Origin: Chloroflexota bacterium
GTDB lineage: Bacteria > Chloroflexota > Dehalococcoidia > DSTF01 > RBG-16-68-14
Assembly: GCA_029262675.1 (NCBI GenBank)
Contig: JAJCYW010000010.1
Location: 129,166-193,165 of the forward strand
Direction of reading: 5' to 3'
DNA: 64,000 nt
Shown: in pieces, positions 44,862 through 63,995 of the stretch
How positions within the stretch are numbered: the stretch's first letter is position 1
How the letters are laid out: each line of letters starts with the position of its first letter
Made by a program: the position numbers and the translations under genes
Notes under the pieces: generated by a model
Database searches by the model: none
Seen by the model: the letters and a program-made list of their open reading frames with translations, nothing else
What the model was told of the DNA's origin: nothing

Positions 44862-45989
44862 GTGAAAACTATGCCACGTAACCGTCCCCAATCTGTCTGG
44901 CTGCCCCGGTTGATGGCCGCTGGTGCGCTGTTGGCGACTCTCAGCCTAGTCGCCGCCGTCGCCTGTGGCGATAGCGGTAATGGCGACGACGATAGCTTTA
45001 CTGCGATTCGCGAGCAGGCGCCGCCGGATTCGATCGCGTTCGGCGCGCAGGAGGGCGAGGGCGTCCCGCCGAACGGCGGGACGTACGGCCTCTACCTCGT
45101 GCGGCCGGACGGCACGTTCTTGCGTTCGATCCAGATCGAGACCGCGCCAGTCTCGTCGCCCGTCTGGGCACCCACCGGCGACCGCATCGCCTACAACTTC
45201 GGCGCGGACGCGGCGCGGCTCACCGCCACGCTTCGTATCTACGACTTCGCTTCGCAGGCCGCGACGACGGTCAGCGACAGCGCCCTCACCAGCGACGTCG
45301 GCCCGGCGATGAGCTGGTCCGCGGACGGCGGCCGCCTCGCGTTCGCCGAGGAAGGCGGCCGGATCCGCATCTACGATGCCGACCGCGCAGTGCTGGAAGA
45401 CGCCGGCGGCGCCACCGGTCTGACCCCCGCCTGGCGGCCCGGCGCAGACGAACTGGCGATCGCGCGCGTCAGCGGCAATGACTCCGGCAGCAGCCTGAGC
45501 GTCCTGGCCGCCGATGGCGACGACGAGCGAGAACTGTTGGAGCGCGAGGCCGCCGACGCCGCGCCCGTCTGGTCACCGGACGGCGAGTCGCTAGCGTTCC
45601 AGACGCTTCGTCCGGACGTGCCCGGTAGGTTTGTGCTCTCCGTGCTCCAGATCGATAACGGCTCGCTTACGGAGGTCGGCCCGGGGTCGGGCGCGGCGTG
45701 GTCACCGGACGGTGCATTCCTCACTTACTACACGCTCGTGTCGGACGCCTCACCGGACATCGATATCTTCGTCGCCCCCGCCGGCGGCGGCCCGCCGCGA
45801 GCGTTTGCCGGCCCCGCCACGCTGGACGTCGCGCCGAGCTGGTCGCCGGACGGCGGGCGTATCGTCTACCTGGCGCGGGCCGACCGCACGACGGCCTTCA
45901 TCTGCTTGGTGGCGCTCGAGGGCGAGGACCGCGATTGCTTGGACCTGCCCGGCCTGCTGCCGTCTCAGCCTGCCTGGTCGCCGCACTAG
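44862..45989 (+). CDS. TolB-like beta-propeller lipoprotein (PD40/WD40-like repeats)
   Basis: Lipobox LVAAVACGDSG; repeated (W/Y)SPDG motifs (WAPTGDRIAY, WSADGGRLAF, WSPDGESLAF, WSPDGAFLTY, WSPDGGRIVY). Confidence 0.7.
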   Translation: MKTMPRNRPQSVWLPRLMAAGALLATLSLVAAVACGDSGNGDDDSFTAIREQAPPDSIAFGAQEGEGVPPNGGTYGLYLVRPDGTFLRSIQIETAPVSSPVWAPTGDRIAYNFGADAARLTATLRIYDFASQAATTVSDSALTSDVGPAMSWSADGGRLAFAEEGGRIRIYDADRAVLEDAGGATGLTPAWRPGADELAIARVSGNDSGSSLSVLAADGDDERELLEREAADAAPVWSPDGESLAFQTLRPDVPGRFVLSVLQIDNGSLTEVGPGSGAAWSPDGAFLTYYTLVSDASPDIDIFVAPAGGGPPRAFAGPATLDVAPSWSPDGGRIVYLARADRTTAFICLVALEGEDRDCLDLPGLLPSQPAWSPH

Positions 45990-48941: not shown

Positions 48942-49361
48942 CTGCGGACCTTCCTTCTCTGCCCCACCCCAACTGTTGCCCGCATCGGCAGGGGAGCCGT
49001 GTCCGGCAGTTCCCTACATACGAGACGGCGGCCGGGCGCGTCAGCCACCCCCACCCGGTCTCTGCGGCGAACGCGTTGGCCCGGCGATTCCCTCGCCGGC
49101 CGGCCCGACAGTCTTACTATAGTCCTACTATCGGCATGCTGCATCGCGGGCCAATTACTCAGCCGATTCGTACCCGCAGCTTCCGGTTAGTTTACCATAC
49201 GGATTATCGTATCCCTAGGGTGTTAAATCCCTTAGGCGTGGTCCTCAAAACCCTTAGAATCTAGAGGAATCCCCCTAGTTCCGTAGCTTGCGGGAACCGC
49301 TAGGCCTGCGCGGCAGCCTCCCCGGCGGGATCCGGGCGCGGGGCGGGCTCCCTACGCCATC

Positions 49362-50366
49362 TCAGCGGCAGATGAAGAGGTTCGCCTCTATTTGAAGGAT
49401 CAGCAGCGCGTCGATCGGCCCGGTGCGGCCATCGCCGTTCAGGTCGTCGCTGAACGGAACGAAGTCGATGACGCCCGTCGTCAGCCAGAGCACCCAGAGG
49501 GCGTCCTGGCTGTTGACCAGGCCGTTGCCGTCGATATCGCCGCAGGGCCGCGGCCGAGGCGTAGCGGTTGCGGGATCGAGCGTCGGCGTCGCGGTCACGG
49601 CCGGCGTCGGCGTTGGCGTCGTAGTCGGGGTCGGCGTTGCCGTGGGCGTAGGGGTGGGCGTCAGCGTGGGGCCGCCGGGCGTAATCGTCGGCAGCGGGGT
49701 GGGCGTCGGCGGCTCGCCGCAGATGATCGTGATGTTCGTCAGCTTGGGGATAGTGTCAACTTGAGAGTCGTTGACAAAGATCGTAATCTGTGATCCGCTG
49801 GTTCCCTGAGACGTGTTCGGAGGAATGACGCCATCATACGGCAACTGCACGACATCGCTGATGGTGTCCGTGCTGGAGCAGGTCATGCTGATGTGCACGA
49901 AGTCCCCGGCGAATGTGCTGATCGGCTGCGGCGGAAGTAATCCTGAGAGGCAGCCGTGGCCCACGTTGTAGATTGGCTGACCTGGCCCCGCCAGGTTGTC
50001 GAACTCCGGCCGCTGGGCGGTTTGCCCTACACAGTCCGGCCACACGATCTCATCGGCAGCTAGGCCGGTTCTGTTGTACGTCAGGTGTTCGCCGTAGCGG
50101 ACGAACGACTGCACGGCTACATACCCGCTGCTCGGGGCAGTGACGATCTTCACGGCCAGCGTGAACGTCTCGTCGAGCTCTAGCTGGCAGGTGCCCTCGC
50201 AGTCGCCGTCGGCCGCGATCACCGTGAGCGCCATCTCCGGGCCGCCGGACGTGGCGGACGTGGACGGCAGTTGGCCGCTGAGGAAGAGCGCGGCGGCGGC
50301 CAGCGCCACCACGGCAACGCCCGCGGCGGCGATGCGTCCGGCCCGTGGCCGCGATCGCGTGCTCAT
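49362..50366 (-). CDS. Secreted protein B: signal + N-domain + PT linker + dockerin
   Basis: SGGPEMALTV...GYVAVQSFVRYG...IVWPDC...HGCLSGLLPPQP...; TPTPTPTATPTPTTTPTPTP; dockerin CGDIDGNGLVNSQDALWVLW...DLNGDGRTGPIDALLILQ. Confidence 0.7.
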   Translation of the reverse strand: MSTRSRPRAGRIAAAGVAVVALAAAALFLSGQLPSTSATSGGPEMALTVIAADGDCEGTCQLELDETFTLAVKIVTAPSSGYVAVQSFVRYGEHLTYNRTGLAADEIVWPDCVGQTAQRPEFDNLAGPGQPIYNVGHGCLSGLLPPQPISTFAGDFVHISMTCSSTDTISDVVQLPYDGVIPPNTSQGTSGSQITIFVNDSQVDTIPKLTNITIICGEPPTPTPLPTITPGGPTLTPTPTPTATPTPTTTPTPTPAVTATPTLDPATATPRPRPCGDIDGNGLVNSQDALWVLWLTTGVIDFVPFSDDLNGDGRTGPIDALLILQIEANLFICR

Positions 50367-50565
50367 CTGGTGGCGGCTCCTGAATCGGCTGCTAGTCGAG
50401 TCATCCGAATTGCAGTATATCGCGTGCGTGCCGGTTGAGTCGTCATCCGCCGCTGACAGGAGAAGGGCTCGCTAGCGGCGGATGCAGTAAGGGCGTCCCG
50501 ACCATGTCGGGACGCCCCCCTGTTTAGTGCTCGTTGTTGCGTCTACGTACCTTCCTGAGCGCCCG

Positions 50566-51534
50566 TTACGCGGGTGGCACGCAGAAATCGCTGCCGTTGC
50601 CGGCCACGATCTGGAGGATCAACGCGGCGTCGATCGAGTTGACGACTCGGTCGCCGTCGATATCTCCGATCAGATCGAGAAGGCTGTCCTGGTTGTTGTC
50701 CTTGAGCGGTAGCAACGCCTCGACGAGCCCGGCGTCGAACCACAGCACCCAGAGCGCGTCCAGCGTGCTGATTTCACCATCGCGGTTGACGTCGCCGCAG
50801 ACAAAGTCCGGAACCGGCGTCGCTGTCGGCGGTACCGGCGTGTCCGTCGCCGGAGCCGGCGTGTCTGTCGGGCCAGGCGTGGCTGTCGGGCCGGATGTCG
50901 TCGGCGTGGCCTCGACAGGCGCCGTCGTTGGCGTTTCTGGCGGCGCGCCCGCACCGCAGGTGATGGAGAGGGTGCTCACCTTGGCGGGTATGACTTCGGC
51001 TCCGGCGGAGAAACCGGTGCCGCTGGTACCGGCGACAGGGTCGCCTGCCGGCAGCAGCGCTACGTCCGTCGTACTGGGGCCCGCGGAGCACGTGATTGAT
51101 ACCTCTGCGAAGCTGCCGGTGGCGGTGCTGAGCGGCAGCGGCGGAATCAGGCCAGTGAGGCAGCCGTGGTTGACGGTGGTCGGCCCGCCCGGCTGGTCGT
51201 GCAAGGCCACCGCGTCGGTGCAGTCCGGCCAGAGGATTTCGTCAGCAGCGGCCACCGCTGCGAGGTCGTAGGACAGGTCGCTGCCGAAGTCGATGAACGA
51301 CTGGGCGCCGACGTAGCCGCCTGCCAGCCCCTCGATGATCTCGACCGTGAGCGTAAACTTCGCGCTGTTATCGAACGTGCAGTCTGCGGCGCAGCCTTCG
51401 GCCGTCAGCCGCATCTCCGGGCCGCTACTGGCGGCCGAGGTGGTCTGAATCTGGTCGGCGAGGAAGAATGCCGTCGCCACGAGGGCGAGCACAGCCGCCA
51501 GCCCGAAGCCCAGATATGTTCTCTTTAGTTGCAT
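50566..51534 (-). CDS. Secreted protein C: signal + N-domain + PT linker + dockerin
   Basis: ATG 51534 (MQLKRTYLGF...) with AAGGAGG 7 nt upstream. SSGPEMRLTA...GYVGAQSFIDFG...ILWPDC...HGCLTGLIPPLP; dockerin CGDVNRDGEISTLDALWVLW...DIDGDRVVNSIDAALILQ. Confidence 0.7.
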   Translation of the reverse strand: MQLKRTYLGFGLAAVLALVATAFFLADQIQTTSAASSGPEMRLTAEGCAADCTFDNSAKFTLTVEIIEGLAGGYVGAQSFIDFGSDLSYDLAAVAAADEILWPDCTDAVALHDQPGGPTTVNHGCLTGLIPPLPLSTATGSFAEVSITCSAGPSTTDVALLPAGDPVAGTSGTGFSAGAEVIPAKVSTLSITCGAGAPPETPTTAPVEATPTTSGPTATPGPTDTPAPATDTPVPPTATPVPDFVCGDVNRDGEISTLDALWVLWFDAGLVEALLPLKDNNQDSLLDLIGDIDGDRVVNSIDAALILQIVAGNGSDFCVPPA

Positions 51535-51570
51535 CGTGTAACCTCCTTGCATATCTCGCTTCGAGACGCG

Positions 51571-52362
51571 CTACTGTACGCGGCGGCCTGCGATTACGCG
51601 CAGGCCGAACGTGGAGAGCCCCGTCGCGCTGATCGCCAGCAGAGCTGCGATTACTGCCCACATGCCTGTTCCGAACCCGCTGTCGCCGGTGGCGCTGAAT
51701 GTACCCGTGTCCGGCAGACCAGTCGGACCAGTCGGCCCGGGCGGTGGCGCCTCGCCACAGTTGACGATTACGGAGTCCGTCTTGGTCGGCACGTCTACTT
51801 GTGTATCGCCCTCATAGAAGGCGAACGCGGCGCCGCTGGTCCGGCCGGCGGATAGCGGCATCAGGCGCACGGCCGTGTGCGAGTAGGTGTCTGAGCACTC
51901 CAGGTCGATTTCAAGCAGCGTGCCCGTGTAGCTGCTCTCAGGGAGCGGCGGGAGCAGGCCCGTGAGGCCGCCATGGGTGATCTCGCCTGCCCCTACATCG
52001 CCTCTGATGATTACATCTTCGGATACTGCGTCGGGCCACAGGAACTCATCCGCCGGTTCCGGCCGCGCGACGTAAGTCAGGTCCAGGCCGTAGTCGATGA
52101 ACGTTTGTACCAGAACGTAGCCCTCGATCGGCGCCGTGACGACGTCGACCGTGACCGTTATCTCGCCGCCCAGATCCACGTCACACTCGCCGCCGCTGCA
52201 ATCGACGCCGGGGCCGGATACGCTGATGGCCATCTCCGGACCGATGCCGGCAGCGCTCGCGGTGGGTGCGGCGGTCTGGCCCCATGCCAGCACCAGCATC
52301 GCCATGAGCGGGATACCCAACAGCGCGGTGCTGCGTAGCCCTAATCGTTTCCGCACTTCCAT
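51571..52362 (-). CDS. Surface protein D: signal + N-domain + C-terminal LPDTG sortase sorting signal, no dockerin
   Basis: ATG 52362 (MEVRKRLGL...) with GGAAGGGAG RBS. GIGPEMAISV...GYVLVQTFIDYG...FLWPDA...HGGLTGLLPPLP. C-terminus GLPDTGTFSATGDSGFGTGMWAVIAALLAISATGLSTFGLRVIAGRRVQ. Confidence 0.7.
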   Translation of the reverse strand: MEVRKRLGLRSTALLGIPLMAMLVLAWGQTAAPTASAAGIGPEMAISVSGPGVDCSGGECDVDLGGEITVTVDVVTAPIEGYVLVQTFIDYGLDLTYVARPEPADEFLWPDAVSEDVIIRGDVGAGEITHGGLTGLLPPLPESSYTGTLLEIDLECSDTYSHTAVRLMPLSAGRTSGAAFAFYEGDTQVDVPTKTDSVIVNCGEAPPPGPTGPTGLPDTGTFSATGDSGFGTGMWAVIAALLAISATGLSTFGLRVIAGRRVQ

Positions 52363-52705
52363 GTTAGCTCCCTTCCTTCTACTCTTCCCTAAGTCTCGCG
52401 GCGTCCCTGGCCGGCGCACCCCTAAGCGGGGCCGCTTCGGCTGCGATCCGAAAGGTCGTGTGGCCCCCGCCACATCTTCCCCATAAGCACTGCCCCATGC
52501 CCAAACGTACCGGCGGAAGGGGCAGTAGCTGCGCCTAGCCTAGCGTATCCGGGGAGTTAATACTAGCCCCTCCGCGCAAGCCGGCCAGACGCTTCCACGT
52601 GGCTTCGGCATTATCATACTCGATTCGCGCAACTGCGCAAGGTGCGATTCTGGCTTACATGTCCGTGCTCTCATCTGTCGCACCAATGCGTCTCATTGAT
52701 GACGG

Positions 52706-52740
52706 CCGGAGAGCCGCCCTCGATTGGCGGCTCTCCCCGG
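52706..52740. terminator. Hairpin CCGGAGAGCCGCC-ctcgatt-GGCGGCTCTCCCCGG 3' of gene E
   Basis: Read directly, 24 nt downstream of the E stop on the minus strand. No clear U-run. Confidence 0.35.
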
Positions 52741-52763
52741 CGTTTCAGATAGATCTCCGGGTG

Positions 52764-53549
52764 TTAATTCACGCACGGCACCTGATACTGCGTGATGGCG
52801 CCCAGGATGTCAAGGAGAAGGTCGATTGCGCCGTCGTCGTTGATGTCGAAGGCCGGATCGTACGGCGGGGCTCCACTAGGAGCGTAGTGCTGAATGATGC
52901 CCAGGATGTCGTTCAGCAGGTCGACGATGCCGTCTCCGTTTGTATCGGCGCAGCCCATGAACAGGAGGGTTGATGACAGGACGCTTACTCCAGGGATCTG
53001 CCCGATGTCATCGGGGTCCGCCGGCGTGTTGATCAGGTACGAACCAGTCAGGTCCAGCGCGGTTCCCGGACCCATGATCGAGCCCGGATCGAGCGTCAGC
53101 TTCGCCAGGAGGCCGGTGCCTTGCACGCCGAAGGGAGGCACGTGGTCGATGGTAACGCAGTCCACGAAGACGTGGTTGGCCTCTATCGTCGGTGAAGGAC
53201 AGGATGGGCTTCGGCCGGATCCGGCAAGCCACGTGGTGTACGGCACCCAGGTTACGGCCGTCGCCAGCGAATCGTCGAATGCGATGTCGACGCGGAAGCC
53301 GGAGGCGCCTCCGGGCTCCTTCACGCTGACGGCCCAGACATAGATGTCTCGGTCAATGCCATCCGGGGAGACGACGATAGAGGACGCGCGGACGGGACTT
53401 ACGTCGGAGTAGCTCAACAAGATCTGCGTGGTCCCCGCACTTTCCGCGGGGTTGCTATCTTGAGCGATCCCCACTGTGGCGAAGACGAGCGCTCCAACCA
53501 GCAATCCGATCTTCGCGAATCCTCGCAATGGCTTTGTCAGTCGGTTCAC
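52764..53549 (-). CDS. Secreted adaptor-like protein E: signal + cohesin-like module + dockerin
   Basis: GTG 53549 (VNRLTKPLRGFAKIGLLVGALVFATV...) with AGGAGG 7 nt upstream. Cohesin-like hallmarks GASGFRVDIAFDDSLATAVTW and GTGLLAKLTLDPG. Dockerin CADTNGDGIVDLLNDILGII...DINDDGAIDLLLDILGAI. Confidence 0.6.
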   Translation of the reverse strand: MNRLTKPLRGFAKIGLLVGALVFATVGIAQDSNPAESAGTTQILLSYSDVSPVRASSIVVSPDGIDRDIYVWAVSVKEPGGASGFRVDIAFDDSLATAVTWVPYTTWLAGSGRSPSCPSPTIEANHVFVDCVTIDHVPPFGVQGTGLLAKLTLDPGSIMGPGTALDLTGSYLINTPADPDDIGQIPGVSVLSSTLLFMGCADTNGDGIVDLLNDILGIIQHYAPSGAPPYDPAFDINDDGAIDLLLDILGAITQYQVPCVN

Positions 53550-53607
53550 GGCTTGTACCTCCTGCTTCCGAATGCGTTGCATACGGGAACTGGCTCCCCC
53601 CGAAGCT

Positions 53608-54549
53608 CTATGATTCTCCCCTGTGCATGATGCGCCGCCGCAAGAAGCCTGCCGCCAGTCCCGCTGCCGTGAGGCCGCCAAGGCCAACGAGGATCCAGAG
53701 TGTGACAGCGCCGTTTGCGTTCCCGTCGTCATCGGGGGCGCTGATGCTCGGTGTAGGTGTGCCGATTTCAGAAACGGCCGTGTCTGTCGCTGTCGGCGTG
53801 CCATCCGCCGCGGGAGTCGTCGGCGCCGGCGAGGCGCCCGCAGTCGGCGACTGCACGGTTGCCGGTTCGATTGTTGTCGTGGCGTTCGTTCCTGGCGTGT
53901 CTGTTGCGACCTGCGGCGAAGACGTAGCCGTGGGCGGTGCGTTTCCGGTCACGCGGACCAGGCCGCCGACGACGTCCAGTGGTACCGGGTCTCCCAGCGG
54001 ACCCGAGAGTTGAGACGTCAGCAACAGCGGGCTGGAGCCCGCGCCCAGCGGCGTGAACGTCACGCTGGCAAGCGTGAGTTCGCCCTGCAGCCCCGGGATC
54101 GAATCGCTGGAAGACAGGCAGCCGAAGCGGACGCTGCCCGGCTCTACGCGCGGTGGCAGGCATTGGAACGGGCGGCTACTGGCTGCCAGCCCCGGGCCGG
54201 GCTCGAGGTGGTCCACAGCGACGACGGTCTCATCGAATTCGATGATGAACTCGAACGCGGCCATGCCGATCGATTCAACTTCGCGGTCCGGAACGGTATC
54301 GCGGTTGTCGTCGTAGAAGATCGCCCCGTGGTGGTCCAGGTCCTCCAGGACGATGAAGACGCCAAACGCACCGCTGTCCGCGTCGACGCTGGAGATGGCC
54401 GGCAGCAGCCGGACCGTTCCGTCTGCGGACTGCGCGCTGGTGGACTTAACTGCGATCGTCATAGCAATCAGCATAAGCGATGCCAGAAGCATCCAGATCA
54501 AGAGCGTGCGAGGCCGCGCGCGAGGCATCAGCGGGGCGGTCCGACCCAA
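53608..54549 (-). CDS. Membrane-anchored cohesin-like protein F: signal + cohesin-like module + PT linker + C-terminal TM anchor
   Basis: TTG 54549 with GGGAGGAAAC RBS. Cohesin hallmarks GMAAFEFIIEFDETVVAV and GLQGELTLASVTFTPLGAGSSPL. C-terminus TLWILVGLGGLTAAGLAAGFLRRRIMHRGES; no LPXTG. Confidence 0.6.
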   Translation of the reverse strand: MGRTAPLMPRARPRTLLIWMLLASLMLIAMTIAVKSTSAQSADGTVRLLPAISSVDADSGAFGVFIVLEDLDHHGAIFYDDNRDTVPDREVESIGMAAFEFIIEFDETVVAVDHLEPGPGLAASSRPFQCLPPRVEPGSVRFGCLSSSDSIPGLQGELTLASVTFTPLGAGSSPLLLTSQLSGPLGDPVPLDVVGGLVRVTGNAPPTATSSPQVATDTPGTNATTTIEPATVQSPTAGASPAPTTPAADGTPTATDTAVSEIGTPTPSISAPDDDGNANGAVTLWILVGLGGLTAAGLAAGFLRRRIMHRGES

Positions 54550-54734
54550 ACGTTTCCTCCCATCTACGAAAACGATGCGGACGTGGCGAATGTAACGCCC
54601 GTGCTCCTCTTTCTAGCATGTTCCGGCCCCTGTGCAATGCCATTTCCCGCAGTCATTGCTGCGGATCTTCAGCCCTACCCCCAATTCGGCGTAGGACTCA
54701 AGGCCCAAAGCATCTGTAATCTGCGAATAGATAA

Positions 54735-54777
54735 GGGCGGGGAAGCCGGAACTATGAGTCCGGTGCTCCCCCGCCCC
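54735..54777. terminator. GC-rich hairpin GGGCGGGGAAGCCGGA...TCCGGTGCTCCCCCGCCCC 3' of gene G
   Basis: Read directly, ~90 nt downstream of the G stop on the minus strand; followed on that strand by TTATCTATT. Confidence 0.4.
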
Positions 54778-54868
54778 ATCTTGGTCACTCCGTGACCTGC
54801 TGTATTCGCTTCTTTCCCCGCAACCGCTCTAGCTGGCTACGGAAAGAACTTGATGATCTAAAACCCCC

Positions 54869-56329
54869 TTAGGCCTTCGGGTTCACCGGCGGCTGCGGCG
54901 GGTGCGGCACTGCGCATGTGCTTCCGAAGCGGCCAAAGACGAACTGCAGGTCGTTGATGTCGATGTCGGCATCTGACTGCGTTCCGGAGGGCTCCAGGTT
55001 CATGAAGTCCTTGTAGATCAGGCTACCCTTCTCAACGCCCCAACGGAACGAGATCGCCTGCGCGTCTAGCGCGTCGACCGAACAGTCGGGCTCCACGTCA
55101 CCTTCGAGGTAGCGGAACGTAATGTCCGCGTCGTCGCAGGCGAAGATCGGGATCGCCTCACCTTGCTCGTCACCCAGGTCACAGTTCACGTTGTTGATCT
55201 GGACGACGTTACCGTTTTCCTGGTTGGGCTTCATCGGAGAGTAGATCTCCGGCTGCGGATAGACATCGACGGTGGCCAGCGAGGCCAGGTTGTCGATGCG
55301 GTCTACTTCAGCCGCCTTACCCACGGTGACACAACCAATGCGGGCAACGCCCTCAAGCTGCGGCTTGCTAGCCGAGTCTTGGATGATGCAGATCGCACCC
55401 GCGGCCTGCCAGTCGGCGCCCGTGGTCAGGTCAACACAGACCTTCTTGTTGTCGTAGAGAACCTCGAACTCAAAGGCCGCGAGTACCTGGAATCCGGTCA
55501 CGCCCTTCGGGTCCGGGGAGACAACCGCCTGGCTCAGCTCTTCGCTGAGGCTACCGATGTTCGTGCCAGAGAGGCAGTCTACCGGCGGAACCTTTGAACC
55601 CTGTCGCGTCAGGAAGACGTTCTGCAGGGCCGGGATCTTGGACATTCGCGGCACCGGCGGCGGCGTGTTCGTCGGCGTCGATGTCGGAGTCGGCGTGAAT
55701 GTCGGAGTCGGCGTTGCTGTGTTCGCGTTCGTGCAGTGTACGGTTACCGAACTGCCAGGAACGGCGATGTTGCCAGTTACAGCGTCAGCAAATGCCGCGC
55801 CGCTGGTACCGGCGTTCGGGCCGCCGAGCGTCTCCAGATCAATCTGGTGGCCCTGGGACTTGCCCGTTGTGCAGGTAAAGTCGAACTGGAACAGCGCACC
55901 CTTGATAACGCTGATTGGCGGACTGATCAGTCCGGTCAGACAACCACGGCCAACGGTTGTGGCCGTCAGTGTTCCAAGGTCTGCCGCGGCGCAGTCTCCC
56001 CATATGGTGGAGGAGCCCGTTGCCGTCAGACCAGTGGCGCCAAAGAACAGGAAGGCCTGCGCACCGACGTAACCGTTCGTAATCGGAACGGCGTCACCGC
56101 TGACGGTGACGCTAAAGGCGCTACCAATTGGGACACAAACGTCGCCCGGGGCCTTTGCGCCGGGGCAGGTCTGGCCGCCGGAGACGGCCATGCTCATGGC
56201 AGCGCCGTCTGTGGCTGCCTCTGCAGTGTCGGTGCTGTGGCCCATGCTGAACACCATGACCGCTAGCGCGATCGCCAGAAGCGGCAGGCTCAGCAAGCCC
56301 AGTACCTTAATTCGTTGTGTTCTATTCAC
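54869..56329 (-). CDS. Secreted protein G: signal + N-domain + PT linker + cohesin-like module + divergent (class-2) dockerin-like module
   Basis: GTG 56329 (MNRTQRIKVLGLL...) with AGGAGG 8 nt upstream. N-domain TDGAAMSMAVSGG...GYVGAQAFLFFG...GCLTGLISPP. Cohesin-like GVTGFQVLAAFEFEVLYDNKKVCV...ARIGCVTVG. C-terminal DVEPDCSVDALDAQAISFRWGV...DADIDINDLQFVFGRFGSTC. Confidence 0.65.
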   Translation of the reverse strand: MNRTQRIKVLGLLSLPLLAIALAVMVFSMGHSTDTAEAATDGAAMSMAVSGGQTCPGAKAPGDVCVPIGSAFSVTVSGDAVPITNGYVGAQAFLFFGATGLTATGSSTIWGDCAAADLGTLTATTVGRGCLTGLISPPISVIKGALFQFDFTCTTGKSQGHQIDLETLGGPNAGTSGAAFADAVTGNIAVPGSSVTVHCTNANTATPTPTFTPTPTSTPTNTPPPVPRMSKIPALQNVFLTRQGSKVPPVDCLSGTNIGSLSEELSQAVVSPDPKGVTGFQVLAAFEFEVLYDNKKVCVDLTTGADWQAAGAICIIQDSASKPQLEGVARIGCVTVGKAAEVDRIDNLASLATVDVYPQPEIYSPMKPNQENGNVVQINNVNCDLGDEQGEAIPIFACDDADITFRYLEGDVEPDCSVDALDAQAISFRWGVEKGSLIYKDFMNLEPSGTQSDADIDINDLQFVFGRFGSTCAVPHPPQPPVNPKA

Positions 56330-56701
56330 GAAGTTGACCTCCTACCGAGAGTAGATAATATCTAGGTTACTCTGTGGTTTGCTTGTTCTGGTGTAGTACA
56401 TCCCCTCCTTTCTCGGCCCTACACGGGGTAGGAGCCAAATACAGCGGTGTAACCAAATTGGCAACCAACCGGGCGGGGGTCGGTGATTGGCATGTAATAC
56501 CGCTTGCGCGGCGGACTATGGCGGGGAACCTGTGGAATCTTCTTCCACCAGCTGATACTTGTATATCACGGTGTCCCAGCTTTGTCAAGCGTTCCGAGCG
56601 TACCTAATTTCGATCCTCTGCAGAACCGGTTGGAGCGACACCTGACGTATGGAGCGGTGCATTCCCGGCATCATGACAACGACAACGCGCGAGACTCGCG
56701 A

Positions 56702-58900
56702 TCATAACAACAGCGAGCAGTCCTGCCCGTGGTGCTGAATGACCGGCAGGACGTCGAAGAGCAGGCTGACCGTGCCGTCACCGTCGATATCGTAGAGCAC
56801 GTCGAATCCGGGATCTCCCGTTACCTCGCCGTGGTGTTGCACGACCGTCAGGATGTCGAAGAGCAGGTCGACCACGAGGTCGCCGGTAACGTCGAAGCAG
56901 GCCTTCAGGTCTGTTGTTTCGGAGGCGTCGTTGCCTACTGGGTTCTCATCCGGGTCCGAGGCAGACGCCGTGACGTTGTTCGTAATCGTTTGGTCCACCA
57001 TCAGTGTTGGCGCGCGCACATCCAGCGTGATGATCACCTGGCTGCTTACGAGGACCTCGTCGATGGTGCACTCGACCGTATCGACCGGTACCGCGACGCA
57101 AACGGCTCCCGTCGCGCCGACAAAGGTGGCCGGACGGTTGAACTTGGCGAAGTTGAAGACGGTAGCCGTCGGCAACGTGTCCGTCACGACCACGTCCAGC
57201 GCGTCGCCGAGCCCGATGTTGTCGACCGTGATCGTGTAGCTGTAGTAGCCGAGTCGCAGCACCGGATCGGCCAAATCCACCTTGGTTACGACGAGGTCCG
57301 GCGGCGGCGCCACAACCGGCGTGTACGCGATAGCCGAGTTGTTGCCGGAGTGGACAAAGAGCTCGTTGTCGGCCGAAACGACCGCAGTGTTCTTCATCAT
57401 CAGGCTCTGCGTCACCACCGGAGAGAGCATCACGATCTCGACGAATGCATCGCTGCCCGCCGGAATGTTCCCCAGGCTGCAGGTGACGACCCCGGCGACT
57501 GGCGCGCCGCAGCCGGGGCTTGCCGACACGAAGGCACCGTCCAACGGAAGCGTGTCCACAATGACGACGTTTTCTGCCTCTTGCGGACCGCTGTTTGCGG
57601 CCGTCAGCGTGTACGTGACGTTCTCGTTGCCGTTCACGAATGACGGATCGCCCACTTTGGTCAGATCCACGTCTGACCGTGGTGCGAGGACTACCGTCTC
57701 TTCGATATCCGTATTATTACCGGTGTTCGCAAAAGGCTCGTTGCTCGCGCTTACAGTGACCGTGTTCGAGACCAGCGTGTCCAATATGGGCGATGGCGCC
57801 GTCACGGTGATATCGATGACTACCTGGTCGGACGGGTTCATCGGGTTGGTGACCGTGCAGATCACGACGCCTAGATTCTCGCCGCAGTTGGCGCCCGCGG
57901 AGACCGCGGACACAAACGACGAACCGGGCGGTAACGCGTCGGACATCGTAACGTCCTCGGCCGTTTGCAGGCCCACGCTATCGATGGTGACGCGGTACGT
58001 GAAAGTGGCCGTCGCGTCGACGGGGTCCGTCAGGTCGACCTTCGTCACCTTGACGTCAGGCCGCTCGCTCGGCGGCGGCAGCGGCGTCGGGGTGTCGGTC
58101 GGCGTCGGCGAGACCGTCGGCGTGTGTGTAGCCGGAATCGGCGTCACCGTCGGTGTCGGCGTCGGGCCCAGGCAGTGGACGACGAGATCTGAAAGCTTCG
58201 GAATGACTGTTGTTGTCCCATCCTGGAACGCGGTGCCGCTGGTGCCCGCCAACGGGTCGTTTTCCGGCAGGAGCTGGACATTGGTGGTGGAAGAAGACGA
58301 GGAGCACGTGAATGATAGCTCCAAGATGGTGCCGATGAAGAAGCTCACCGGCTGCGGGGGGATTAGGCCCGTGAGTCCGCCGTGGGATACGACGTGCGGC
58401 GCGACTTGGGCCTTGAATACCACCGAAGGGTCTAGGTCTGGCCAGACCATCTCGTCGGCCGCGGCCTGGGAGTTGTAGGTGAGGTTGGTCGTGACGCAAT
58501 CGGTGTCGAAGCGGTCGGCGCCATCGCCGCCGCCGTTGTCGATTGTGTCACTGCAGGTATTGAGACCGGCGCCGTCTTCGCTCGCGGCGGGATCGTAGAT
58601 GCCGTAATCGATGAACGTCTGCACCGCAATGTACCCCGGCACTGGCGTATCGATGACATTAGCCGTCAGCGTGAAGGTGTCGCCTGCCGTGACGCAGTCG
58701 TCGTTCGGGTCATAGCCGCCCGGGCATGCTGTGCCGCCCGTAGTAACCGCCATAGAGATCTCCGGTCCGGTGCTGGCGGCCTCTGCGCGCTGCTCGCCGC
58801 CGCTATCCCAGACCAGGAAGACCGCGACGGCGATGAGCGCGATGATTGGCAGCACCAAGAGCCGTGTTGCCATCCTTGGACTAATGTTGCCGATCTTCAT
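56702..58900 (-). CDS. Secreted protein H: signal + N-domain + 3 DUF11-like conserved repeat domains + dockerin
   Basis: ATG 58900 with GGAGGAGG RBS. N-domain STGPEISMAV...GYIAVQTFIDYG...MVWPDL...HGGLTGLIPPQP. Three ~120-aa repeats (DVKVTKVDLTDPVDATATFTYRVTI.., DVDLTKVGDPSF..VTYTLTAANSGPQEAENVVIVDTLP.., DLVVTKVDLADPV..YSYTITVDNIGLGDALDVVVTDTLP). Dockerin CFDVTGDLVVDLLFDILTVV...DIDGDGTVSLLFDVLPVI. Confidence 0.7.
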   Translation of the reverse strand: MKIGNISPRMATRLLVLPIIALIAVAVFLVWDSGGEQRAEAASTGPEISMAVTTGGTACPGGYDPNDDCVTAGDTFTLTANVIDTPVPGYIAVQTFIDYGIYDPAASEDGAGLNTCSDTIDNGGGDGADRFDTDCVTTNLTYNSQAAADEMVWPDLDPSVVFKAQVAPHVVSHGGLTGLIPPQPVSFFIGTILELSFTCSSSSSTTNVQLLPENDPLAGTSGTAFQDGTTTVIPKLSDLVVHCLGPTPTPTVTPIPATHTPTVSPTPTDTPTPLPPPSERPDVKVTKVDLTDPVDATATFTYRVTIDSVGLQTAEDVTMSDALPPGSSFVSAVSAGANCGENLGVVICTVTNPMNPSDQVVIDITVTAPSPILDTLVSNTVTVSASNEPFANTGNNTDIEETVVLAPRSDVDLTKVGDPSFVNGNENVTYTLTAANSGPQEAENVVIVDTLPLDGAFVSASPGCGAPVAGVVTCSLGNIPAGSDAFVEIVMLSPVVTQSLMMKNTAVVSADNELFVHSGNNSAIAYTPVVAPPPDLVVTKVDLADPVLRLGYYSYTITVDNIGLGDALDVVVTDTLPTATVFNFAKFNRPATFVGATGAVCVAVPVDTVECTIDEVLVSSQVIITLDVRAPTLMVDQTITNNVTASASDPDENPVGNDASETTDLKACFDVTGDLVVDLLFDILTVVQHHGEVTGDPGFDVLYDIDGDGTVSLLFDVLPVIQHHGQDCSLLL

Positions 58901-58956
58901 GTTGTAGCCTCCTCCGGAAAACCACTACATCTTCATAAACGTTTGCCGGTTGCGTA

Positions 58957-60720
58957 TCATACCGGTGGCTGATCGAGTACTCCTGCTTCCAACTGCAAGA
59001 TGACGGTCGCGTCGATGCTGTTGACTGTTCCGTTCTCATCCACGTCGGCGTTCTCCGCGCAGGCCACGTTGGCCAGCAGTCCGGCGTGATACTGCAACAC
59101 CAATGTAGCATCGATGCTGTTCGTTTGGCCGTCGCAGTTCACGTCACCGCTAGCCGGACGGCTGGTGAGCGCGTCCGAACATGAGGCGGCCACGACGTCG
59201 TCGCCGGTCATCAACCCGAGTGACGACGCGGCCAGGGCAACGGTCGGGGGCGTACGCGCGACGCCGGCGGGCGTCGCGGGCCACAGCAAGTCGCCGGGGC
59301 CGGCGCCGATCGCAGCCAGCGTCGGCGATCCGGCCGTCAGTGAAAAGACAACGTGGTCTTCTGTGGCGCGATACGTTCCGTCGCCGCTCTCATGCAGGCA
59401 GAGGGCGTCAATGTCGTCTCCGGGCAGTAGGCCCAGCGCTCCGGCCGTAGCGTACGCCGCGGGTGGCGCGCCCGCCGACGTGACCAGCACATCTGCTGCC
59501 AAGACGCCGTACGCCGGGAGCGACGGGGACGCGCCGTCGAGCGAAAAGTACACGCTCCGCTCCGGGACGCCGTCGTGGTTGGCATCGACAACGTCCGCGT
59601 GCGGCTGCGTTAGCGCGTTGAGGTTGGGGCGAGCGCTGATCGACTCGACAAGGCCGAGCGGGAACGCGGCTGCGCAGGCGCCGATCGGTCCGTTGCCGTC
59701 CAGCGTGAGCTGGTTCGTTCCGTCGCCGGTGGACGAGAACACGTCCGATTCGGCCTCGGGCGAGAGCCCCGGCTCGGCCGGGGGGCAGGCGCGCTGCTCG
59801 GCGACCGCCGTGCCCGGCATTCCGTCTGCCGTGGGGCCGACCGAGAAGTAGCTGACGTTGGCGGCCAGGTCGTTACCGAACGACAGGGCGTCGATGTCGT
59901 CCCGCGGGGCGCCTTCTGCTCCGCAGCCGGTGAGCCCCAGGCCGGGGCAGGCGATGCGAACAAACGGGGCTTGGCCTGCGCCCGTCGTGGCTGCGAGCGG
60001 CGTCAGCGCTAGCACACTCGCGGGGGGTAGGCCGTCCGCGTTGCCGCGCTCGACGGAGTACGCGGGTAACAGCGGAGCGACTGCGATAGTGAGGCTATTG
60101 ATGCACAGTTCGAGGTCGGTATGCGTGTTCGCCTCGTTTACCAGCGCGATGCAGTGTTCTGGCGTGCCTGCTGCTGGCGCTGGCCACTGGTACGTGAGAC
60201 CGAGCGGCGGCCACGCCGCAAGGAAGGCCTGTTGGCCGGACGCTGCGGGCGTCAGGTGGATGGGCGTCTCGTTGTGGATCTGAAGCGGGCCGATTACGGT
60301 GCTCGGCAGTTCAAGATCGAGAGATAGCTCGAAGAAGCTGGACGCCGGAAACGGGATGCCGGGCTGCGTGCTGCGGATCTCGCCCGTCGAGTGGTAGGAC
60401 GCGCCCTGGTCGGGCCGCTCCGTGACATCCACCAGACCGAGACGGCTTGCTCCTCGTAGCTCTAGGTTGACGATCGCTAGCTCCTGAACCAGGGTTCCGC
60501 CGTCGTCGCGCGGATCCGACCGCTCTACCTCAATCCATCCAGGGAGGATCGCCGTGTCGCCGCCCAGAAGGCTCGTCACTTCCGCGATCGCGACTACCGG
60601 TAGCGTGTCCGTTCCAGGTGGGTACGTAGGCATCCCGGCCCTCGTTAACTGCGTCGCATTCATCATCACCAAGCCGAAGAAGAGTAACGCGCCTGTCAGC
60701 CCTAATCCGACGAAACGCAT
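58957..60720 (-). CDS. Secreted protein I: signal + unrecognised ~480-aa N-terminal region with internal repeats + canonical dockerin
   Basis: ATG 60720 with GAGGAG RBS. Internal repeats (GAPRDDIDALSFG / LPGDDIDALCLHESGDG / MTGDDVVAASCSD). Dockerin SGDVNCDGQTNSIDATLVLQYHAGLL...DVDENGTVNSIDATVILQ. Confidence 0.65.
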   Translation of the reverse strand: MRFVGLGLTGALLFFGLVMMNATQLTRAGMPTYPPGTDTLPVVAIAEVTSLLGGDTAILPGWIEVERSDPRDDGGTLVQELAIVNLELRGASRLGLVDVTERPDQGASYHSTGEIRSTQPGIPFPASSFFELSLDLELPSTVIGPLQIHNETPIHLTPAASGQQAFLAAWPPLGLTYQWPAPAAGTPEHCIALVNEANTHTDLELCINSLTIAVAPLLPAYSVERGNADGLPPASVLALTPLAATTGAGQAPFVRIACPGLGLTGCGAEGAPRDDIDALSFGNDLAANVSYFSVGPTADGMPGTAVAEQRACPPAEPGLSPEAESDVFSSTGDGTNQLTLDGNGPIGACAAAFPLGLVESISARPNLNALTQPHADVVDANHDGVPERSVYFSLDGASPSLPAYGVLAADVLVTSAGAPPAAYATAGALGLLPGDDIDALCLHESGDGTYRATEDHVVFSLTAGSPTLAAIGAGPGDLLWPATPAGVARTPPTVALAASSLGLMTGDDVVAASCSDALTSRPASGDVNCDGQTNSIDATLVLQYHAGLLANVACAENADVDENGTVNSIDATVILQLEAGVLDQPPV

Positions 60721-60860
60721 CTTCTCCTCATTAACACGCAGCGCTTGCGCACGCAGCGCATATCTCCCGGCATGCGGGGCAAGCGGCTTGGAGGCGGGGA
60801 TGTCCGGCTAGTATACGTCTCTCGCGCCCACGCTGGCAACCGGCAGACGCGGGAGGACGC

Positions 60861-63800
60861 CTATCGCGGGCCATCTGTGTCCTCTTGACGACGCGACGGC
60901 GCAGGCCTGAAGCGCGGCTGGAACGGTGCCGGCGTCACGCCCTGCCGTCTGCGCCACCACAGCAGTTGCGACCAGGCGAGCAGCACCGCGCCGCCCGCTA
61001 ATCCAGCGATCGCGAGCGTGGTTGGCAGTACGTCGCCCGATGACCCGTCAGCCCCTCCCGTATCGGGGAGACCTGCGACCGGAGTCTTTAGGATAGGCCC
61101 ACTGTCGCGGACCAGTGTTGGTGTTGAGGTTGGCACAGGCGCCTGGATGGGCGTGGCCGATCCCGTGGGTGATGCGGGCGTTGCGGTGCTGGGCGGCGCC
61201 CCGGGGGCCGGCGTGTCCGTCGGCGGGATGAATGCGGGCGTTGCGGTGCTGGGCGGCGCACCGGGGGCCGGCGTGTCCGTCGGCGGGATGGCGGGAACTG
61301 GTGTGGCGGTGTTTGCGGGTGCCGGCGTCGATGTGGGCGGCACAGCGGGCGTCCCGAATGTCGGTAGCGGGATCACCGTCGCCGTTGGTGGTGGCGGAGT
61401 CGTCGGTGTGGGCGTTGGAATCGCCGCTATCGCCGGTGTCCACGTCGGCTCGGCGGTCCACGTCGGTACTGGTGTCCAAGTCGGCTCCTGCGTCCACGTT
61501 GGCTGGGGCGTCCAGGTGTGCGTCGCTGTCGGCGAGGCGTCAGACGTTGGCACAGGCGTACCAGAGCCGTCAGGCGTCGCGGAGGGTTCTGGAGTCGTAC
61601 TCGGTGCCGGCGTGTCTGTAGCTGTAAGAGCCGGCGTGGCTGTCGCCGTCGATGTTACCGTTGGGTCCGGCGTCGGCGAGCCGGCCCCGGCGCCTCCCGG
61701 CGTGGCAGTTGCCGTCGCTGTCGCTGCGGCCGTCGCTGTCGCTGGCGCAGTCGTTACCGTCGCGGTTGGTTGCGGCGAAGGTGATGCGGTCGGAGTGCTT
61801 GACGGCGTTTCGCCGGTCGGCCCAGGGGTCGCGGTAGCCTCGGGCGTGACGCTCGGCGTTGGGGTTTCCGTTGACTTGGATGGCGGATCCTGTATGCCCC
61901 ACGGTTGCGCACAGGTGCTGCCCGTGCGGCCGTAGACTGTCTGCAGGTCGCTGATGTCGATGTCGCCGTCCGGCCGGATGGCTGGCTCGAGATCGTACCT
62001 CTCCTGATATAGGGTAGAGCCTTCGGAAACGCCGAAGCGTCCGGCTACCATTTGGTGATCGATGACGTTGACGGCGCAGTCGACGTTGATGTCGGACTCC
62101 AGCGCGCGAACGATGACCTTGGCGTCGCCGACGAACGAAACCGGAATGCCGTCCTCCAGCGCGCCGACGAGTCTGGTGTTCGCCGTGACGTCATCCAGAA
62201 TCACTTCTATCCCGTTATTTGGCGCCGGCCGAATCGGAATCCTCGCCAGCGGTGTTACCGTGATCCTGGCGAAAGCGAACGTGCCGCTCGGGCCGGGGTC
62301 GACGCCGGTCGTCACGCAGCCGAAGCGCACCGCTCCCTCCGTCCTGTTCTCCAGACATGTCGCCGTTCGGTCTGTGCCTTCCAACTCCTGGAGGAACGGC
62401 GAGGCGTCGATATCGAGCGATACGGTGTTGTTGTCGTAGGCCACGTGCAGCTCAAAACCACCGAGGCCGGATCCCTCCGGAACGTTCTGCGCCCGTTCGT
62501 ACAGCACAAGCGAGCCATTGCCCAAGAATAGGTTGGATTCCGCCGGCTCCTTGATCACACTGACGATATCCTGTTCCGATTGAACGCCCGCCGGCCCCGT
62601 GACGCCTGGATACGCGACTGACTTGTGGGCCGTAATCGCCACCGTCCGCAGCGTCGTGGTGAGCGAGCTGCTGTTGAGGCTCGGTATGCCTGGCGTTGCT
62701 GTTGGAGTCACCGTCGGTGTCGGGGTGGGCGTAGCGACAGGTGTCGGAGTCGCCGGCGGGATGACGATGACGACGCCGTCCTGCGTCACGATAGGTAGCT
62801 GGGCCGCGCCTGGGACGTCGACGATAATCGGGCCTGAGAGATGGAGCGGTGACAGTCCTTCGGCGAGGGCGAAGAATGTGGCCGTGGCGATCACGCCTGA
62901 ACCGTTGGCGCCAGGCGGCGTGGTGCCGATGGTGTTGCAGGAGAACTCGACGTCGCTAACGCCTACGATGGGCGGCAAGCAGACGACGTTGCGTCCCGTA
63001 CTGCCGAGAAAGGGGCCGACGACGAGCGACTGGGACAAGATCACAGACGGGCTGTAGCTGAGCATGAACTGGAACGCGCCGAGGTCGGCTACGTTATCGA
63101 CAACAATGTCCGCCGTGACGATGGTACCGACTGGCGCGTTCTGGCTGACCGGATCTATGCGTATGGTGACTGGCCCAGCGGGCGTCGTTGACGTTGGCGT
63201 AGGTGTGAACGTCGCTGTCGGCGGCGGGATCGGCGTGTCGGTGGGGGTTGGGGTGATCGTCGGCGTTGGTGTCACCGTCGGCGTCGGGCAGATGCCGCCC
63301 GGGCACGGGGTTGGTGTCACCGTCGGCGTCGGGCTGAGCGTGGCAGTTGGCGAGAGCGTCGGCGTCGGCGTCGCCCCCTCGACGACCGTGATCTCGCCGA
63401 CTCCGAGTGCCGCCGTCGGGTAGGCGAGTCCAGGGACGTCTGTGAAAATGACGTCCTCAAACGTCAGCAAGCTGATGCCGGCAGCCTCTCCCCGCAGCGT
63501 GATGAATGCTAACACGCCGGTGCCTGTTGGCCCCGCCGGTGTTGGTTCAATCGACACGCAGGTGTACTGGATGAAACCCGGCCCGGCGGTGGGCACTAGG
63601 CACGTGACGATGCGTGATGTGCTGGAGAGGAACGGCCCGGGTGATACGCTGGGCGCGGAAACGACGAGCGGATCATACCGAAGCGTGAACTGGAAGGCGC
63701 CCAGCTCCGGCGCGTTTGCCACAGCGACCTCAAGGATCGTTTCGCTGCTCAGATTCACAGTCTGGCTCTGCGGCTGCGGGCAGAGGATGAAGACGACCGC

Positions 63801-63995
63801 CGCGCCGCACGTGATCGGCGTTGGTGTAGCCGTGGGCGTTGACGTTGGCCCGCCAGGCGTCGGCGTTGAGGTCGGTGTCAATGTCGGGCATGTAGTCGTG
63901 CCCAAGACGGTCGCGGTGCCATTGTGCAGCGAGCGCGGGATCGGCGTGCCGAGCGTATCGGCGATGTCTGCGTTTGCCAGGATCAGCGTGCTCAC
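60861..63995 (-). CDS. Scaffoldin-like surface protein J (N-terminus beyond window end): >=3 cohesin-like modules + class-2 dockerin-like module + long PT-rich region + LPDTG sortase signal
   Basis: Three cohesin hallmarks (LGAFQFTLRYDPLVVSA..GVLAFITLRGEAAGISLLTF; LGAFQFMLSYSPSVILS..GVIATATFFALAEGLSPLHL; LGGFELHVAYDNNTVSL..GTFAFARITVTP) separated by PTPT linkers. DINVDCAVNVIDHQMVAGRFGV...DGDIDISDLQTVYGRTGSTC. C-terminus GLPDTGGADGSSGDVLPTTLAIAGLAGGAVLLAWSQLLWWRRRQG. ORF still open at 63995. Confidence 0.65.
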   Translation of the reverse strand: MSTLILANADIADTLGTPIPRSLHNGTATVLGTTTCPTLTPTSTPTPGGPTSTPTATPTPITCGAAVVFILCPQPQSQTVNLSSETILEVAVANAPELGAFQFTLRYDPLVVSAPSVSPGPFLSSTSRIVTCLVPTAGPGFIQYTCVSIEPTPAGPTGTGVLAFITLRGEAAGISLLTFEDVIFTDVPGLAYPTAALGVGEITVVEGATPTPTLSPTATLSPTPTVTPTPCPGGICPTPTVTPTPTITPTPTDTPIPPPTATFTPTPTSTTPAGPVTIRIDPVSQNAPVGTIVTADIVVDNVADLGAFQFMLSYSPSVILSQSLVVGPFLGSTGRNVVCLPPIVGVSDVEFSCNTIGTTPPGANGSGVIATATFFALAEGLSPLHLSGPIIVDVPGAAQLPIVTQDGVVIVIPPATPTPVATPTPTPTVTPTATPGIPSLNSSSLTTTLRTVAITAHKSVAYPGVTGPAGVQSEQDIVSVIKEPAESNLFLGNGSLVLYERAQNVPEGSGLGGFELHVAYDNNTVSLDIDASPFLQELEGTDRTATCLENRTEGAVRFGCVTTGVDPGPSGTFAFARITVTPLARIPIRPAPNNGIEVILDDVTANTRLVGALEDGIPVSFVGDAKVIVRALESDINVDCAVNVIDHQMVAGRFGVSEGSTLYQERYDLEPAIRPDGDIDISDLQTVYGRTGSTCAQPWGIQDPPSKSTETPTPSVTPEATATPGPTGETPSSTPTASPSPQPTATVTTAPATATAAATATATATPGGAGAGSPTPDPTVTSTATATPALTATDTPAPSTTPEPSATPDGSGTPVPTSDASPTATHTWTPQPTWTQEPTWTPVPTWTAEPTWTPAIAAIPTPTPTTPPPPTATVIPLPTFGTPAVPPTSTPAPANTATPVPAIPPTDTPAPGAPPSTATPAFIPPTDTPAPGAPPSTATPASPTGSATPIQAPVPTSTPTLVRDSGPILKTPVAGLPDTGGADGSSGDVLPTTLAIAGLAGGAVLLAWSQLLWWRRRQGVTPAPFQPRFRPAPSRRQEDTDGPR

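Follow-up and report, generated by a model that had tools for sequence, protein, structure and literature searches.

The window analysed here is a stretch of 64,000 nucleotides (G+C ~66%) from a Chloroflexota bacterium, the last 18 kb of which form a minus-strand cluster of secreted-protein genes, denoted A to J. Two of the encoded proteins, G and J, carry a Cys-bracketed module, here called the class-2 module, whose assignment as a genuine, divergent dockerin homolog is well supported by sequence comparison. The module is directly fused to a preceding cohesin-fold domain, and the unit of evolution and reuse is this cohesin-dockerin dyad of ~230-255 residues, since a cohesin lies upstream in nearly all family members and the module alone is poorly folded in structure prediction. 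In the explanation that fits best, to which we give about even chances, a divergent dockerin is part of a reused cohesin-dockerin dyad, with the anchored J-type dyad acting as a receptor and G-type dyads as tags on cargo proteins. The parts concerned are the following.

55115-55639, minus strand: cohesin-fold domain of G (amino acids (aa) 231-405), directly fused to the module and forming with it the G-type dyad
54872-55114, minus strand: class-2 dockerin-like module of G with a conserved C-terminal tail (aa 406-486; RYLEGDVEPDC...GRFGSTC...PVNPKA)
62109-62558, minus strand: cohesin of the J-type dyad (aa 480-629), homologous to the G dyad and to the cohesins of F, E and J
61881-62108, minus strand: class-2 dockerin-like module of J (aa 630-705), internal in the protein
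61071-61880, minus strand: Pro/Thr/Ala-rich stalk of J (aa 706-975, ~270 residues)
60954-61070, minus strand: sortase sorting signal of J, consisting of LPDTG (aa 976-980), a hydrophobic helix and a basic tail

The original prediction, made from the letters of the window, had described a consensus for this module and assigned G and J to a dockerin class of their own. Both modules match the consensus and are 51% identical to each other, and 15 positions are near-invariant over 30 module homologs. A profile of the 81-residue module retrieved 878 clusters at E<=1e-3 and 414 at E<=1e-10 from 1.84 billion representatives, nearly all of them from Chloroflexota/Dehalococcoidia. This family of 878 clusters (at 50% identity) is not covered by any Pfam or NCBIfam model, and its members are all annotated as 'hypothetical'. 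In view of the near-invariant positions, the number of clusters and the alignment of the first half of the module with the second (hhalign, P=6.9e-5, 21 columns; common register D-x-x-D-x-Q-x4-R-x-G), the module is not a chance pattern. When the profile built from the 30 homologs was compared with all PDB sequences, the four best matches were all dockerins (E 8.4e-4 to 0.04): the Cel48 dockerin of B. cellulosolvens (2y3n_B, E 8.4e-4), followed by the type II X-dockerin of C. thermocellum CipA (2b59_B, 0.003; 3kcp_A, 0.007; 5g5d_B, 0.04). The alignment with the CipA X-dockerin spans both repeats and shows a 6-residue gap exactly where an insert sits in the second loop of the module. Against E 8e-4 to 0.04 for type II dockerins, the type I dockerin of CelS reached an E-value of ~1 only; the module thus stands closer to type II, and the same holds for the dockerins of E and H. 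Profile comparison also links it to the canonical dockerins of the window (hhalign, P=1.1e-4, 55 columns) and, at P=3.7e-4, to the class of E and H. In a MAFFT alignment the G and J modules run in register with the remaining seven dockerins of the window, save for a single insertion of 4-5 residues.

Loop 1 reads DVEPDCSVDALD in G and DINVDCAVNVID in J and has the predicted Ca-loop spacing of 12 residues (D-x-x-x-D-C-x-V-(D/N)-x-x-D). Its position 6 is an invariant Cys, and position 3 is occupied by E, N, D or H in ~70% of the members and by hydrophobic residues in the others. The second half is divergent, as had been proposed: loop 2, composed of (N/D)-L-E-P, an insert and D-x-D-I-D-I-x-D, is broken by 4-5 additional residues in G and J and by 3-11 across the family. 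The canonical pattern, a 12-residue Ca loop in each repeat with Asp/Asn at its positions 1, 3, 5, 9 and 12, is therefore absent from the G/J module, for which Ca binding is presumed.

Both conserved Cys residues occur in 184 of 188 modules; in the only protein without either (P0185), a new pair is gained, with a Cys in each of helices 1 and 3. In the AlphaFold2 (AF2) model of the G dyad, isolated beta-bridges involve residues 187 and 241, adjoining C186 and C242, and also residues 203 and 225. Their presumed pairing agrees with the dockerin layout, where loop 1 comes up against the end of helix 3. The loop-1 Cys and the invariant Cys after helix 3 thus probably form a disulfide 'clasp'. Non-covalent clasps between the N- and C-termini are known to stabilise dockerins (PMC3821032).

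Not the module alone, but the whole 256-residue unit is conserved. The 257 C-terminal residues of G, used as a query, retrieved 108 homologs with E-values down to 1e-133, all of them 'hypothetical' proteins from Chloroflexi/Dehalococcoidia metagenome bins. The AF2 model of the 256-aa unit (mean predicted local distance difference test score (pLDDT) 93, predicted template modelling score (pTM) 0.89) consists of a beta-sandwich (residues 1-176) and two 8-residue helices (190-197 and 228-235), and ends in a tail that is well ordered; the pLDDT is 86-97 in the module part. The best Foldseek matches of the beta-sandwich are cohesins (E 1e-5); 2XDH, 2JH2 and 2VO8 are among the structural matches. 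The domain is a nine-stranded jelly roll that can be superposed on solved cohesins. It does not reach the PF00963 threshold, and a Pfam scan of G gave neither a cohesin nor a dockerin match, nor any other. The dyad cohesin of J is tied to the Pfam-positive cohesins J2 and J3 indirectly, by phmmer matches to the cohesins of F (F1, 2.5e-10) and E (E1). The last cohesin strand of the 256-residue unit (ADITFR) runs into loop 1 without a linker. Among 141 new representatives of the family, 129 have a cohesin directly upstream of the module, and the remaining 12 are N-truncated fragments, except for P0116 and the J-like P0231. The cohesin ahead of the module plays a role like that of the X module in X-dockerins, but its fold is that of a cohesin.

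Modelled alone, the 81-residue module gave a pLDDT of 53 and a pTM of 0.33, which may by itself be explained by the shallow alignment of 30 sequences. As this model was unusable for a fold search, the dockerin fold rests on the sequence profiles and on the secondary structure within the whole unit. Met-initiated homologs of ~255 aa were considered as truly separate, 'stand-alone' dyad proteins and rejected; they are probably for the most part start-site or fragment artefacts, because a Pro/Thr linker ending in ..P(K/R)M directly precedes the dyad in G and in longer homologs. P0116 contains five tandem free dockerins with a class-2-like extended second loop and a normal Gly at loop-1 position 6, and may represent an evolutionary intermediate.

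The module had been proposed to terminate both proteins. This is the case for G, whereas in J it is followed by the 270-aa stalk and the LPDTG signal. Since J is covalently anchored to the wall through LPDTG, with a sortase gene at 43990-44688, the module is not needed to tie this scaffold to the cell. The same layout of the sorting signal is present in the J orthologs of four other loci (L002, L014, L018 and L028). A 60-bp tandem duplication (61172-61290, two copies, 98% identical, IPPTDTPAPGAPPSTATPA twice) lies in the J stalk, with a run of (E/Q)PTWTP repeats upstream; both suggest that the length of the stalk varied recently.

Position and sequence of the module define two dyad subtypes. 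Helix 1 reads AFRWG in the G-type and A-[G/A/S/V]-R-[F/Y] in the J-type. In the loci, 145-310 aa with an LPxTG motif lie downstream of each of the seven J-type modules, while ~38 of 43 G-type modules end 11-17 aa ahead of the stop codon and none precedes an LPxTG. In the protein set, a downstream LPxTG was found for 0/143 FRW-type, 6/29 non-F-type and 1/26 intermediate FR[F/Y/H] modules. The module lies within 25 residues of the C-terminus in 204 of 244 sampled family members. The cargo joined to G-type dyads is diverse and comprises a matrixin protease that also has GEVED, propellers (several RCC1-like, one PD40), SdrD-B repeats, and either Pfam cohesins or alpha modules (a second beta-domain family of the locus, see below). 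Conversely, minimal anchored proteins (P0208 and P0213) consist of a signal peptide, a J-type dyad, a stalk and LPxTG only, and in P0053 and P0109 a J-type and a G-type dyad stand in tandem in a single protein.

The tail of G (54872-54910, C-x-x-P-(H/W)-P-x-Q-x-P-V-N-P-K-(A/S)) is conserved as the last residues of most G-type dyads, and its pLDDT in the model is 90-97; J-type dyads retain only its C..P(H/W)P.Q.P part. The Lys of the conserved PVNPK(A/S) was considered as a pilin-like sortase acceptor, for which no support was obtained.

Apart from the class-2 modules, the window encodes the dockerins listed below, one of them in a more distant protein denoted 27183; a six-frame scan of the window revealed no additional dockerin loops.

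46152-46331, minus strand: canonical (type-I-like) dockerin of A (PF00404, 1.4e-8; cluster 1)
49368-49544, minus strand: canonical dockerin of B, Cys-bracketed
50581-50799, minus strand: canonical dockerin of C, Cys-bracketed, with a long inter-repeat linker
58975-59148, minus strand: canonical dockerin of I, D-x-N-C-D-G subtype (PF00404, 2e-9)
27504-27677, minus strand: canonical dockerin in the 27183 protein, D-x-N-C-D-G subtype as in I (PF00404, 7e-6)
52773-52952, minus strand: dockerin of E, third class ('flexitail'), with 13-residue loops, Cys-bracketed (NF041520; clusters 2/3; PDB type II X-dockerins)
56717-56899, minus strand: dockerin of H, third class, type as E, Cys-bracketed (by clustering, NF041520 and PDB profile)

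Clustering of 46 dockerins (window plus nine syntenic loci) points to at least three classes instead of the two that had been predicted: type-I-like (A, B, C, I and 27183), 'flexitail' (E and H) and dyad (G and J). The canonical group, with a mean identity of 46%, keeps five of its seven proposed members; E and H fall outside, as they have 13-residue loops and form a separate cluster. They show 52-61% identity within each type, 37% between E and H and 22% to the canonical group, and an invariant Asp at position 13 in both repeats (…(D/S)-L-L-x-D-(I/V)-L…). Ca repeats of lengths other than 12 are also known from R. flavefaciens dockerins (PMC2930009). The G/J types form their own cluster (62% identity within, 20-23% to the other groups, 29% to the type II dockerin of CipA), which together with the PDB profile matches bears out their status as a separate sequence class. 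Most canonical examples lie outside 54869-63995, the segment to which the original prediction was attached and which covers only G to J.

A division into type I and type II had also been suggested, and by profile it holds in part. The canonical profile matches type I dockerins in the PDB at 1e-11 to 1e-7 and no X-dockerin at E<=0.01, and the G/J module is nearest to type II; the E/H profile, however, likewise finds type II X-dockerins as its best PDB matches (4u3s_B, 7.8e-6), so that two of the three classes are type-II-like and one type-I-like. Pfam Dockerin_1 (PF00404) passes its threshold in four proteins (A, C, I and 27183) and matches B, E and H with scores below it; in the G and J modules it gave no match even at E<=0.1. 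The NCBIfam model NF041520 ('flexitail') scores 36.6 bits for E (E 6e-9) and 20.1 bits for H (8e-4), both below its cutoff of 40 bits; it does not match G or J. A literature search on 'flexitail' found nothing relevant. The Cys bracket is not particular to class 2, as had been assumed: in each of B, C, E and H, one Cys stands two residues ahead of loop 1 and another after helix 3, for which a disulfide clasp is again the natural reading. In I and the 27183 protein one Cys is at loop position 4 and one in the linker. The presence of at least three classes would imply several specificities rather than two.

In a scan of one genome per species, the dyad was found at 76 loci in ~35 Chloroflexota/Dehalococcoidia bins, usually with several per genome. 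The gene order J-I-H-G-(F)-E-D-C-B-A-propeller-sortase is largely intact in L002, L006 and L018, where the sortase gene is syntenic with the cluster, and kept in part in L004, L014, L017, L022, L028 and L029; the identity of orthologs across these loci is 40-65%. The orthologs keep their dockerin class: an internal dyad plus LPxTG in those of J, a C-terminal dyad in those of G, 13-residue loops in those of E and H, DALWVLW in those of B and C, and D-x-N-C-D-G in those of I. Because the class is kept ortholog by ortholog, distinct cohesin-dockerin specificities are plausible. J orthologs reach ~1600 residues, with approximately six cohesins ahead of the dyad. A search of the literature on cohesins or dockerins of Chloroflexi/Dehalococcoidia found no paper on such a system.

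According to the explanation introduced above, the wall-anchored J-type dyad would serve as the receptor and G-type dyads as general cargo tags on secreted proteins, the two being joined through cohesin-dockerin contacts between dyads. The locus would then specify a surface assembly of a non-cellulosomal kind, anchored by sortase and using three or more dockerin classes. In this scheme a receptor with a dockerin of its own and a cargo tag with its own cohesin are both left unexplained unless binding is reciprocal; if the dockerin of each dyad enters the cohesin of the other, it becomes clear why both partners keep both halves. A dyad that is self-complementary in this way, linking anchored J-type and cargo G-type units in a reciprocal 'handshake' or in a head-to-tail chain, is a tentative and rather improbable extension. 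Several further points weigh against this explanation. The dockerin homology of the module is marginal in statistical terms (E ~1e-3), with Pfam Dockerin_1 blind to it; loop 2 is non-canonical and loop-1 position 3 variable. In addition, AF2 packs the module rigidly on its own cohesin, and the model may bury either the helices or the 8-3-6-5 face of the cohesin (strands at about 144-157, 53-61, 98-104 and 83-87) in cis, which would argue against docking in trans.

In the main rival, the module is permanently bound to its own cohesin as a single-chain complex and serves, without any docking, as a rigid, disulfide-stapled cap or stalk tip. We consider it the less probable reading, yet one to be taken seriously: the fusion lacks a linker and the relative orientation of its halves is confidently predicted, the module is not confidently folded by itself (for which the shallow alignment may account), and in each repeat the Q and R of the helix are invariant whatever the subtype, as would be expected of a fixed intramolecular interface. 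A mere cap explains neither the strict link of subtype to anchored or free architecture nor its occurrence as the sole domain of minimal anchored proteins, nor why unrelated cargo should have it in common as a C-terminal tag. The two-class model of the original prediction, in which a type-II-like class 2 ties the scaffoldins J and G to a cell-bound cohesin as in C. thermocellum, agrees with the type II dockerins as best solved relatives of the module, with its presence on cohesin-bearing proteins in this window and with the type-I-like canonical class. It is nevertheless unlikely, and a second scaffold-to-cell tier is not borne out: J has an anchor of its own and an internal module, hundreds of non-scaffold proteins carry the module as a C-terminal tag, the third class (E/H) is type-II-like as well, and the module is not separable from its own cohesin in nearly all representatives. 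That the module is no dockerin at all, and merely an Asp-rich or EF-hand-like C-terminal subdomain with a convergent or accidental likeness, is highly improbable. The lack of Pfam and NCBIfam matches, PDB E-values of only ~1e-3 and the aberrant loop 2 would be in line with this view. They are opposed by the four best PDB matches, all dockerins with both repeats aligned, by independent profile-profile links to both local dockerin classes, by an internal duplication with D-x-Q-x4-R in the same register in both halves, by a locus full of cohesins and dockerins, and by the tandem free dockerins of P0116, which have the same extended second loop.

The beta domains of the locus belong to two families, cohesins (J2, J3, F, E and the J and G dyads) and 'alpha' modules (three in A, one each in B, C, D, G and H). 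Pfam Cohesin (PF00963) matches J and, weakly, F. The eight alpha modules (A1-3, B1, C1, D1, G1 and H1; window positions 46080-58900) are interlinked by phmmer at 1e-8 to 1e-51 and share the consensus GPEM…GY.x.Q.F.DFG…DE.VWPD…HG.LTGL.PP.P.S…C…GTSG…C. No Pfam, NCBIfam or credible PDB match was obtained for them (the best, to GAPDH at E 0.09, is spurious), and profile comparison with the cohesin of the dyad gave no link. They may constitute a second receptor family. The domains outside the dyads are as follows.

62754-63803, minus strand: two Pfam cohesins of J (aa 65-207, 63375-63803, and aa 274-414, 62754-63176; PF00963, E 4e-10)
52953-53432, minus strand: cohesin of E
At the window edge: partial further cohesin of J
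53641-54420, minus strand: F, with a single cohesin (53944-54420; weak PF00963, phmmer to J cohesins 1e-14) and a C-terminal membrane anchor (53641-53709)
55724-56209, minus strand: N-terminal alpha-type, putatively beta module of G, with paralogs in A (three), B, C, D and H
51703-51717, minus strand: LPDTG sorting motif of D, which combines an alpha module with a sortase anchor and has no dockerin

The open reading frames (ORFs) of the cluster, all for secreted proteins, and the flanking genes are located at these positions.

46080-48941, minus strand: A
49362-50366, minus strand: B
50566-51552, minus strand: C
51571-52473, minus strand: D
52764-53804, minus strand: E
53608-54549, minus strand: F
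54869-56329, minus strand: G
56702-58900, minus strand: H
58957-60720, minus strand: I
60861-63995, minus strand: J, with its N-terminus beyond the window edge
43990-44688, minus strand: sortase gene (PF04203, 1e-23), flanking the cluster
44862-45989: PD40 propeller gene, flanking the cluster

J is N-terminally truncated, with no in-frame stop up to the window edge, and its N-terminus was deduced from orthologs. The mechanically called ORFs of E and F overlap by ~200 nucleotides; the true start of E is most likely Met75 (53582), just before a signal-like helix, which removes the overlap. In D, LPDTG at aa 253 is followed by a membrane helix and an Arg-rich basic tail, so that D, like J, has the features of a sortase-anchored protein: LPXTG, hydrophobic helix, basic tail and a nearby sortase gene. 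This sortase is nearest to class F (114.8 bits, cutoff 166). Between it and the cluster lies the divergently oriented PD40 propeller gene; a PD40 propeller is fused to a G-type dyad in another protein (P0048). Glycoside hydrolases and carbohydrate-binding modules (CBMs) were not found in the locus. In I, ~490 residues without a detectable domain precede the dockerin, and the protein is kept in every syntenic locus. H contains three DUF11/CLIPPER repeats between its alpha module and its flexitail dockerin. Downstream of its dockerin, A has a stretch rich in Ser/Gly before its hydrophobic C-terminus, VFWSWLGLN (46080-46150); this end of the protein may be another sorting or anchoring signal. Elsewhere in the window, the ORF at 28975-30360 encodes a fusion protein with an alpha/beta-hydrolase domain at the N-terminus and an adenylate/guanylate cyclase domain of class III at the C-terminus.

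The classic plug and socket of cellulosomes, cohesin-dockerin pairs are also a workhorse of synthetic biology. In the dyad, plug and socket are welded into one unit with a conserved Cys pair. Members of a poorly known and mostly uncultured phylum use this unit in two ways, as the tip of a wall-anchored stalk and as a tag at the C-terminus of secreted proteins that are otherwise unrelated. Should dyads pair with each other, both the assembly logic and the orthogonal connector they provide would be new; should they be locked in cis, they would be natural single-chain cohesin-dockerin complexes. A reciprocal handshake would amount to a previously undescribed, sortase-rooted and disulfide-stapled surface display of proteases, propellers and adhesin repeats, a system of Dehalococcoidia-like Chloroflexota that would run parallel to two further dockerin codes in the same locus. 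In either case, the conserved, sortase-linked locus of 18 kb with its three dockerin codes offers a concrete, testable model of Dehalococcoidia-like cell-surface organisation without a link to cellulose degradation.

Among known systems, the type II X-dockerins (CipA, 2B59/3KCP; ScaA of A. cellulolyticus, 4U3S) come closest. They give the best sequence match of the module with both repeats aligned, and share with it a residue other than Asp/Asn at loop-1 position 3, a KGS..Y..E.LD linker, the obligate coupling in cis to a preceding beta-sandwich and the tie to the cell-anchoring end of a cohesin-dockerin system. Unlike in X-dockerins, the preceding domain of the dyad has a cohesin fold and is not an X module. 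As to the placement of X-dockerins at the C-terminus of a primary scaffoldin, where they bind the cohesin of an anchoring protein, the module of G is C-terminal, that of J is internal in a protein with an anchor of its own, and most members of the family are not scaffoldins. The third class of the locus already has a curated name without an attached function, as E and H match NF041520, 'flexitail', a model of Chloroflexi surface proteins.

In the type III system of R. flavefaciens, ScaE displays a cohesin on an LPXTG-anchored protein (PMC12484212), as J does, and dockerins of this species likewise have Ca repeats deviating from 12 residues (PMC2930009) and N/C-terminal clasps (PMC3821032). The present locus differs from ScaE in its lack of glycoside hydrolases and CBMs, in an anchored cohesin that has its own fused dockerin, in its phylum, Chloroflexota, and in sequences that are unrelated beyond the fold. 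Use outside cellulose degradation is shared with the cohesin of Archaeoglobus fulgidus (2XDH) and those of the C. perfringens enzymes GH84C and GH33 (2JH2, 2VO8). Cohesin and dockerin are separate in those proteins, whereas here they are inherited together as a linker-less dyad with two subtypes linked to architecture.

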